Shown piece after piece: positions 56,351-57,456 of a DNA stretch of 64,000 nucleotides. The notes beneath the pieces are model-generated. The model saw only the letters and a list, made by a program, of their open reading frames with translations, had not been told where the DNA came from and did not search any database. Every line of letters begins with the position of its first letter. Position 1 is the first letter of the stretch. The DNA is from Escherichia coli (GTDB lineage Bacteria > Pseudomonadota > Gammaproteobacteria > Enterobacterales > Enterobacteriaceae). The stretch is taken from NCBI RefSeq assembly GCF_003334315.1, contig NZ_QOWR01000010.1. The stretch is one strand, 5' to 3'. Made by a program: the position numbers and the translations under genes.

Positions 56351-56751
56351 ATTTTTCCCTAAATAGTCAGTATGTTGAAACTTTTTATTGTGAGATTTGT
56401 TGCAAAAACCATCTGACCATAACGCCAGCTGCCGGGGAAAGGAAGGATTATCTGCGGTTTTTGTGATGAAAAGCAGGATGATTATATTTAACCCAGTAAA
56501 TACGTTCCTGTCTTTTTTTGTATAAAAAATGTTTATTACTCGATGTAAGGATACATTAATTTTACGTTTATTATGATGAATCCTCGGCAAATGAGCGAAA
56601 TTTGATAGAACATTTATCTGCTGTACGATTTAATGAACTTAATGATACAGCATTACAAAAACAATCGAAGTTTATAAAGATGATTTCTGATTGACCAGCC
56701 CCCTACCCTACAATGGTGATTAATTTTATTACTCGCGATGGAGATGATGAT

Positions 56752-56955
56752 ATGAATATATCATATGTGAATAGCAACAAAACGACATCTTTACCTGTTG
56801 AGCTAGATGCACTAAATAATAAAGATATCTCTTATGCCAAAGATTTCTTTTTATACATAGAAACACAGTTAAAAATTGCAAAAGATTTTTTAGACCTGGA
56901 GAAGAAGTATCAAGTTCTATTGCAAGTAAAGTTTTTCACGCATTTATTGATTTAG
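56752..56955 (+). CDS. yjbS: Small hypothetical protein (67 aa) in an AT-rich islet
   Basis: ATG at 56752 (MNISYVNSNKTTSLPVELDALNNKDISYAKDFFLYIETQLKIAKDFLDLEKKYQVLLQVKFFTHLLI). Low GC. Coding status is uncertain. Confidence 0.45.
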   Translation: MNISYVNSNKTTSLPVELDALNNKDISYAKDFFLYIETQLKIAKDFLDLEKKYQVLLQVKFFTHLLI

Positions 56956-57456
56956 TTAACAAAATCAGGGGTAAGAAAGACTTTATGTATACTTGCACGC
57001 TTTGCTGTTTTGCCGAGGAGGTTAAAGGTGATTATTCTCATTACAGGACCTTTTTATTTGATATTGGTAATCAATATAAGGTTAAACTTACACAAAGCGG
57101 AAAAAAGAGTTCTCTTTAACATTAGAATTTAACGATACTATAATTGAATCTCAGAAAGTCACAGGCAATAAGGCAAAGCATATTCTTGAGGATATAGAAA
57201 TATTCTATCGTAACAAACCCGATACTTATTATTAAATTTAATAATGGTTAGATGTGCAGAAATTATTACTCCACCCAAAAAAACAGGATAAGGAATTCCA
57301 GATAATTGGGATAAACTTAACAATAAAAGAACTAACAACGTTTATTATCTCTCACGTAGAACGATGGCATCAAAAAAATCATCTATAAAGAAAGAGTGAA
57401 AGCGACGACAGTTTAATTTCACTGCAGGCTGGGTAGCTCCAGCCTGCTTTCCTGCA

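Follow-up and report, generated by a model that had tools for sequence, protein, structure and literature searches.

The AT-rich islet that separates aphA from tyrB in the 64,000-nucleotide stretch of Escherichia coli DNA analysed here (hereafter the window) is very likely what is left of one protein gene, which two deletions of one base each have inactivated in this strain. In other E. coli strains the same site holds a single uninterrupted open reading frame (ORF) of 161, 167 or 173 aa, which begins at the ATG of yjbS, while yjbS and the other short ORFs of the window are fragments of the dead gene and hence not genes for small proteins or sRNAs. The gene is an ordinary, recently pseudogenised orphan in a foreign-looking islet.

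In the window, aphA (55637-56350, minus strand) is followed by a spacer of 1,106 bp and then by tyrB (57457-58650, minus strand). The GC content of 200-nt segments between positions 56500 and 57399 is 29-32%, compared with 52.8% for the whole window, which bears out the description of this region as AT-rich in the first-pass annotation. Just two stretches longer than 1 kb in the 64 kb have less than 36% GC, namely the islet and yjcF (42501-43893). The latter gene (ORF 42689-43981, plus strand) encodes the 430-aa protein YjcF, whose C-terminal two-thirds match pentapeptide-repeat proteins of the PDB with E-values down to 1e-14, and whose sequence is not similar to that of the long YjbS protein. 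In the neighbouring aphA, the codon at ~56168-56170 (minus strand) specifies Val in place of the Phe found in the motif MAVGFDIDDT of most loci retrieved, beside the DIDD aspartates, which we take to be catalytic; the change is a widespread natural polymorphism that recurs in 416 of 5,426 genomes, E. coli C among them, and it sets the window apart from K-12.

The bounds of the islet were derived from a comparison of three alternative states of the spacer, described below, which diverge from ~139 nt upstream of aphA up to the tyrB stop codon. The aphA-proximal region of the window is identical to the other two states at 123 of 136 and 114 of 129 positions, respectively. As the first ~139 nt upstream of aphA alone are common to all states, the islet proper comprises 967 bp (Table 1), with a GC content of 31.8%, a composition in keeping with a xenogeneic element. 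An extent of 56591-57456 had been proposed earlier; its right end stands, while the left edge really lies ~100 nt further left, at 56490. The right end is marked by a GC-rich hairpin with a nine-pair stem in the centroid structure (z = -2.8), which is probably the tyrB terminator; the other two states have different hairpins after tyrB.

Table 1. Coordinates of the islet, of the pieces of the broken gene and of associated features in the window
Feature	Position	Strand	Remarks
aphA upstream region	56351..56489	-	flanks the islet, outside it; common to all three spacer states
AT-rich variable islet	56490..57456	.	967 bp, ~32% GC; bounds from the three spacer states
yjbS, 67 aa, N-terminal fragment	56752..56955	+	codons 1-46 native, 47-67 out-of-frame
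18-bp unit TCTTATGCCAAAGATTTC (encodes SYAKDF), single copy	56830..56847	+	from allele alignment
Lesion 1, 1-bp deletion (lost G)	56890..56891	+	intact TTTTTGTAGACC, TTTTT-TAGACC in the window
Middle fragment, native frame (RPGEEV...KLTQSGK)	56892..57106	+	contains the 44-aa ORF
Lesion 2, A7 homopolymer reduced to A6	57101..57106	+	parts the 44-aa ORF from the tail
C-terminal fragment, native frame (EFSLTLEFND...KPDTYY)	57107..57235	+	stop codon 57233-57235; ATG-less frame
GC-rich hairpin (GCAGGCTGG/CCAGCCTGC)	57424..57447	-	just after the tyrB stop codon; right end of the islet; probable tyrB terminator

All the short ORFs that had been reported for this region were found: the 67-aa yjbS, a 44-aa ORF at 56985-57119 (plus strand) and a stop-free frame without ATG. 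The yjbS ORF, which starts with MNISY and has a GGAG 8 nt upstream of its ATG, is enclosed in a mechanically defined ORF of 80 aa (56713-56955). Lesion 1 causes a frameshift that gives rise to the stop codon of yjbS, and the 21 C-terminal residues of YjbS, codons 47-67 (LDLEKKYQVLLQVKFFTHLLI), stem from out-of-frame read-through past this first frameshift. The ATG of the 44-aa ORF corresponds to the internal Met85 of the intact protein, and its end is a frameshifted SSL*. The ATG-less frame, which reads ...EFSLTLEFNDTIIESQKVTGNKAKHILEDIEIFYRNKPDTYY*, is the native C-terminus of the intact protein. The 18-bp unit encoding SYAKDF is present in one copy in the window, in two tandem copies in locus L002 and in three in L017, always in frame; it is a polymorphism rather than a lesion, since other intact alleles hold one or three copies without loss of the frame. 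Taken by themselves, the ORFs of the window are unremarkable compared to chance: the longest stop-free run in its islet, 98 codons, was matched by 273 of 5,000 dinucleotide shuffles (5.5%).

The first-pass annotation had suspected a decayed module and had suggested a search for an intact ancestral gene in relatives. This search revealed that the three peptides follow one another within one ORF of 161-173 aa, and the suspicion of decay was essentially right, as two frameshifts separate the window from an ORF that many E. coli retain intact. The aphA-tyrB spacer holds an intact ORF in loci L002, L004, L007, L009-L011, L014, L015, L017 and L020-L024, and every locus retrieved has the gene in this position. 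Two features of a pseudogene were thus observed, an intact ortholog in the same position and frame-breaking deletions, two of them, each of 1 bp. In an intact allele the longest stop-free run extends over 186 codons in DNA of 31.5% GC, and none of 5,000 dinucleotide-preserving shuffles reached this length (mean of the longest run 69 ± 15.5, maximum 164).

Comparison of the intact alleles with each other shows that they are under weak purifying selection. In deep pairs (dS 0.10-0.175) the dN/dS ratio is 0.15-0.55, and several of them have an excess of synonymous changes that reaches significance (lowest p = 0.003), with the reservation that pairwise tests are not phylogenetically independent. 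The variable sites are distributed as 11, 23 and 31 over the first, second and third codon positions, respectively. The corresponding dN/dS values of aphA and tyrB in the same loci are 0.03-0.12, and dN of the ORF is about ten to twenty times that of these flanking genes. Because the nucleotide diversity of the ORF (0.044) is no lower than that of non-coding DNA in the islet (0.035 and 0.061), and because some shallow allele pairs give dN/dS above 1, the constraint must be weak. On this evidence the intact form behaves as a protein-coding sequence, albeit a weakly constrained one.

Both aphA and tyrB are present in all 5,426 complete E. coli genomes, and the spacer between them occurs in three states: the yjbS islet in 4,379 genomes, a short spacer of ~336 bp in 20 (19 of them found by direct search), and something larger in ~1,027, a number obtained by subtraction, with one genome inspected. 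In that genome, ATCC 25922, the spacer holds the KguS/KguR alpha-ketoglutarate island, for which an insertion between these two genes has been published (PMC3694859). This island of uropathogenic E. coli fills the same spacer as the yjbS islet and represents an alternative state, but unlike the islet it spans ~13.9 kb, and the metabolic function of its ten annotated genes is known; outside the ~139 nt adjacent to aphA the two have no sequence in common. Since the states share only these ~139 nt and each has its own tyrB hairpin, the site is a hotspot of replacement rather than of simple insertion. The presence of the islet varies among strains, as is typical of xenogeneic elements; it contains no integrase, tRNA or repeats, and no homologs of its gene that could point to a donor were found outside Escherichia or in phages. 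Its composition together with its pattern of presence and absence would be consistent with horizontal acquisition. The adjoining tyrB-alr spacer (58651-58902 in the window) appears from the loci compared to be a second variable site: some lineages carry there a gene for an AAA-family ATPase and pnuC (L003 at 5612-7170, L022 and L025; these carriers include short-spacer strains, ATCC 25922 and one strain with the intact long form of yjbS), and the window is devoid of both.

Alleles were counted with short diagnostic queries, in which every 28-mer seed spans the lesion. The lost G of lesion 1 was found in 1,520 genomes and the intact G at this site in at least 2,312, the latter being a lower bound, as nearby SNPs break the seed. 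The A6 allele is present in 1,703 genomes, and a 10-bp deletion of the O157:H7 type, which removes the A-run, in 309. It follows from these counts that at least 2,012 of the 4,379 copies of the islet (46%) are broken. The intact fraction was estimated by subtraction and from 15 alleles of other than the window type, a convenience sample drawn mostly from an evenly spaced list of islet matches. Nine of them (~60%) are intact and six are broken in at least three further ways: A6 is present in two, each on a further background of its own, two more have lost a different single base beside the A-run (AAAAAATAGC), one combines A6 with another deletion, and one has the O157 deletion. A6 has been found on at least three different allele backgrounds, and in at least 183 genomes it occurs without lesion 1. 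The sampled broken alleles bring the number of inactivations that arose independently, in a cluster around the homopolymer, to at least four. The truncated products of other lineages comprise 119, 126 and 128 aa, and as the truncation points differ between lineages, no particular fragment is conserved. The islet has also been hit by IS1, which is inserted in it in two natural genomes (NZ_CP137737.1 and NZ_CP060057.1). Recurrent IS1 insertions in yjbS have been reported from an evolution experiment on adaptation to macrophages (PMC4999529), and the AT-rich islet appears to be a target of this element.

The intact protein (~19.4 kDa, pI 7.6) has no hydrophobic segment and is soluble as judged from its sequence. 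Searched as a protein of 167/180 aa, it found no match in Pfam, PADLOC or PHROGs, only a 13-bit chance match in NCBIfam and a best E-value of 0.15 in a sequence search of the PDB. The gene was not found in the phage genomes searched, and no viral structure matched below E = 0.007. A word-seeded search of 5.8 billion proteins returned Escherichia copies only, and an exhaustive profile search of 1.84 billion representative proteins only fragments of the same gene. Judging from these searches, the protein is an orphan without detectable relative outside Escherichia.

Several records that suggested a wider distribution were rejected. The lone match in species-representative genomes is located on a 9.5-kb contig (locus L005, NZ_JAUFQN010000013.1) labelled as Flavobacterium paronense CECT 8460, which displays the E. 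coli gene order uvrA-yjbR-yjbQ-aphA-yjbS-tyrB, a window-type yjbS allele and many gene-breaking indel errors. It is almost certainly a contaminant E. coli contig in a Flavobacterium assembly, and as such it provides no evidence of wider distribution. Carriage on plasmids was likewise dismissed, the matches in PLSDB being mislabelled chromosomes or contaminants: several of the "plasmid" records, with lengths of 0.65-4.9 Mb, have a chromosomal appearance. The yjbS on a 17-kb "plasmid" of Klebsiella oxytoca (NZ_CP069917.1) is of the window (K-12) type, which suggests contamination or misassembly.

An AlphaFold2 model, built from a shallow family alignment and of moderate confidence (pLDDT 63.7), predicts a disordered N-terminus of ~38 residues, three helices, a four-to-five-stranded antiparallel sheet and a C-terminal helix. 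When this model was compared with the AlphaFold database using Foldseek, ranks 1-5 were occupied by copies or fragments of the same protein, followed by uncharacterised proteins of E. coli, Shigella and Salmonella with E-values of 2e-4 to 6e-3, and by SMI1/KNR4 proteins at E ~0.01; the database entries matched include Q8XC25, B7NEY7, A0A2X2HGS0 and A0A5W0JRV5. The weak resemblance of the predicted fold to domains of type III effectors and to immunity-type proteins may serve as a lead only. The effectors (the N-terminal domain of PipB2 and VirA/EspG) differ from it in that the fold scores are marginal, with ~8% identity at the aligned positions, in that there is no sequence similarity and no secretion-system gene near yjbS, and in that O157:H7, whose type III system is active, carries a broken copy of the gene.

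The H-NS protein and the promoter content of the region have been covered by a published ChIP-chip analysis of K-12, in which tyrB/yjbS is one of 78 "promoter islands", a class reported to be transcriptionally defective (PMC3661553). In Table 1 of that paper, the region is listed as H-NS-bound in the Kahramanoglou and Oshima data sets, and the paper also notes its overlap with a predicted genomic island and its association with a predicted foreign gene (PMC3661553). From this ChIP-chip and promoter-island analysis it may be assumed that the islet is silent. The islet resembles the H-NS-silenced AT-rich islets and promoter islands of K-12 in its low GC content (~32% vs 53%), its strain-variable presence and its targeting by IS1; unlike them, it is very small, contains a single gene and has no mobility genes, tRNA or flanking repeats, and the spacer has three mutually exclusive states instead of a simple insertion. 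A lack of transposon insertions is frequently seen in DNA coated by H-NS. The yjbS gene has been scored as "essential only by TraDIS" in a study that does not discuss H-NS coating behind this score (PMC5821084). Our literature searches on H-NS together with aphA and tyrB, and on the O157 locus tags, found nothing.

The following scenario would account for these observations. The intact gene was probably acquired once at the aphA-tyrB site, from a donor that was not found. In the lineage of the window, loss of a G at 56890/56891 ended the first piece as the 67-aa "YjbS", and slippage from A7 to A6 at 57101-57106 left the remainder as two pieces, the 44-aa ORF and the tail without ATG. Elsewhere the gene has been inactivated independently, by the 10-bp deletion in O157:H7, by other 1-bp deletions and by IS1 insertions. 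The fragments in the window presumably have no function of their own, the DNA of the islet may persist as an AT-rich, foreign-looking sequence that is coated by H-NS and largely silent, and the intact gene would be real, but weakly constrained and dispensable.

Other explanations have to be weighed against the dead gene. The possibility raised in the first-pass annotation that the islet is a locus for small proteins or an sRNA gained no support, given the start of the 44-aa ORF at Met85, the 21 out-of-frame residues of YjbS, the lack of any Rfam match in the islet and the status of the region as an H-NS-bound promoter island (PMC3661553). A more specific version of this idea is that YjbS, the 44-aa Cys-rich ORF or both acquired separate roles after the frameshifts, and the facts that both begin with ATG, that yjbS has a well-spaced GGAG and a product name in RefSeq, and that the window-type allele is uniform in ~1,500 genomes speak in its favor. 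However, such uniformity is predicted by clonal descent, even if this does not strictly exclude a new role of a fragment, and residues 47-67 of YjbS, the internal Met start and the frameshifted end of the 44-aa ORF, the different truncations in other lineages (119, 126 and 128 aa) and the binding of H-NS in a transcriptionally defective island (PMC3661553) all argue against it, so that we give it a very small chance. Still harder to believe is a non-coding islet with a regulatory or sRNA role, for which the long ORF seen elsewhere would be incidental. AT-rich DNA is dense in promoter-like sites, with one match at 11 of 12 positions in the islet (57116-57144), and the region is listed as a promoter island, but the six promoter-like sites of the islet are what shuffled sequences yield (5.2 ± 2.2). 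An Rfam scan of positions 55000-59000 at E <= 1 gave no match in the islet to a curated RNA family. Moreover, an ORF of this length arose in none of the 5,000 shuffled sequences, dN/dS lies below 1, the variation depends on the codon position, and the non-coding flanks hold indels of 1, 2 and 16 bp. The single match of the Rfam scan lies outside the islet, in the tyrB-alr spacer (58846-58882, plus strand); it is a sub-threshold hit to naRNA4 (32.5 bits vs a gathering score of 59.5) and most likely a REP-type palindromic element.

On the other hand, one could regard the locus as a contingency (phase-variable) gene, in which slippage of the A7 tract and the copy number of the 18-bp unit switch or tune the expression of a protein useful in certain niches only. 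The at least four independent frame-breaking events at the A-run and its surroundings, the change from A7 to A6 on at least three backgrounds, with at least 183 genomes having A6 in the absence of lesion 1, and the occurrence of the 18-bp unit in 1, 2 and 3 copies would fit such a switch. Seven A's are, however, short for a classical phase-variation tract, and lesion 1, which lies outside any long repeat, and the 10-bp deletion of O157 attest to irreversible decay; we therefore consider phase variation highly improbable. A related proposal attributes to the intact 161-173-aa protein, as a new family restricted to E. coli, a niche-dependent role in conflict, similar to that of secreted effectors or immunity proteins; selection would keep it in some lineages, whereas in others it would be switched off at A7 or lost. 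Its sole relatives would be uncharacterised enterobacterial proteins recognizable by predicted fold only (Q8XC25, B7NEY7 and A0A2X2HGS0, with Foldseek E-values of 5e-4 to 2e-3), and we regard this proposal as unlikely. A toxin-antitoxin or defence module was also considered and rejected: the two adjacent small ORFs are in fact one reading frame, which invalidates such a reading, and neither PADLOC nor Pfam gave a match.

The preferred reading, a single gene broken by frameshifts, has consequences for its annotation. Copies of the window (K-12) type are named "protein YjbS" by RefSeq/PGAP, and in O157 Sakai a truncated form of 119 aa is annotated as ECs_5773. On intact copies PGAP reports a "frameshifted" pseudogene and an 83-aa hypothetical protein, or calls the gene "incomplete"; the intact ORFs of 167 or 173 aa in L002 (1902-2405), L004, L007, L009-L011, L015 and L017 are mislabelled in this way. 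The flags apparently arise because the reference proteins used are truncated forms (the 67-aa YjbS and those of 119-128 aa), which renders the full-length gene almost invisible in RefSeq, and the truncated references appear to propagate a wrong gene model. The locus is similar to known frameshifted y-gene pseudogenes of K-12 in having an intact positional ortholog, 1-bp deletions (one of them in a homopolymer) and a short-ORF annotation, but unlike in those cases, the fragment has been annotated as a bona fide protein.

As outlined above, the yjbS islet is a third state of a known variable site, the insertion point of KguS/KguR, and provides a compact case of the repeated, independent loss of an orphan gene inside a single species, in which a homopolymer acts as the mutational hotspot. 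The main value of the finding is a correction of the annotation, in that the 67-aa "uncharacterised protein" YjbS is the front end of a frameshifted gene; a new biological question would arise only if the intact protein proves functional.
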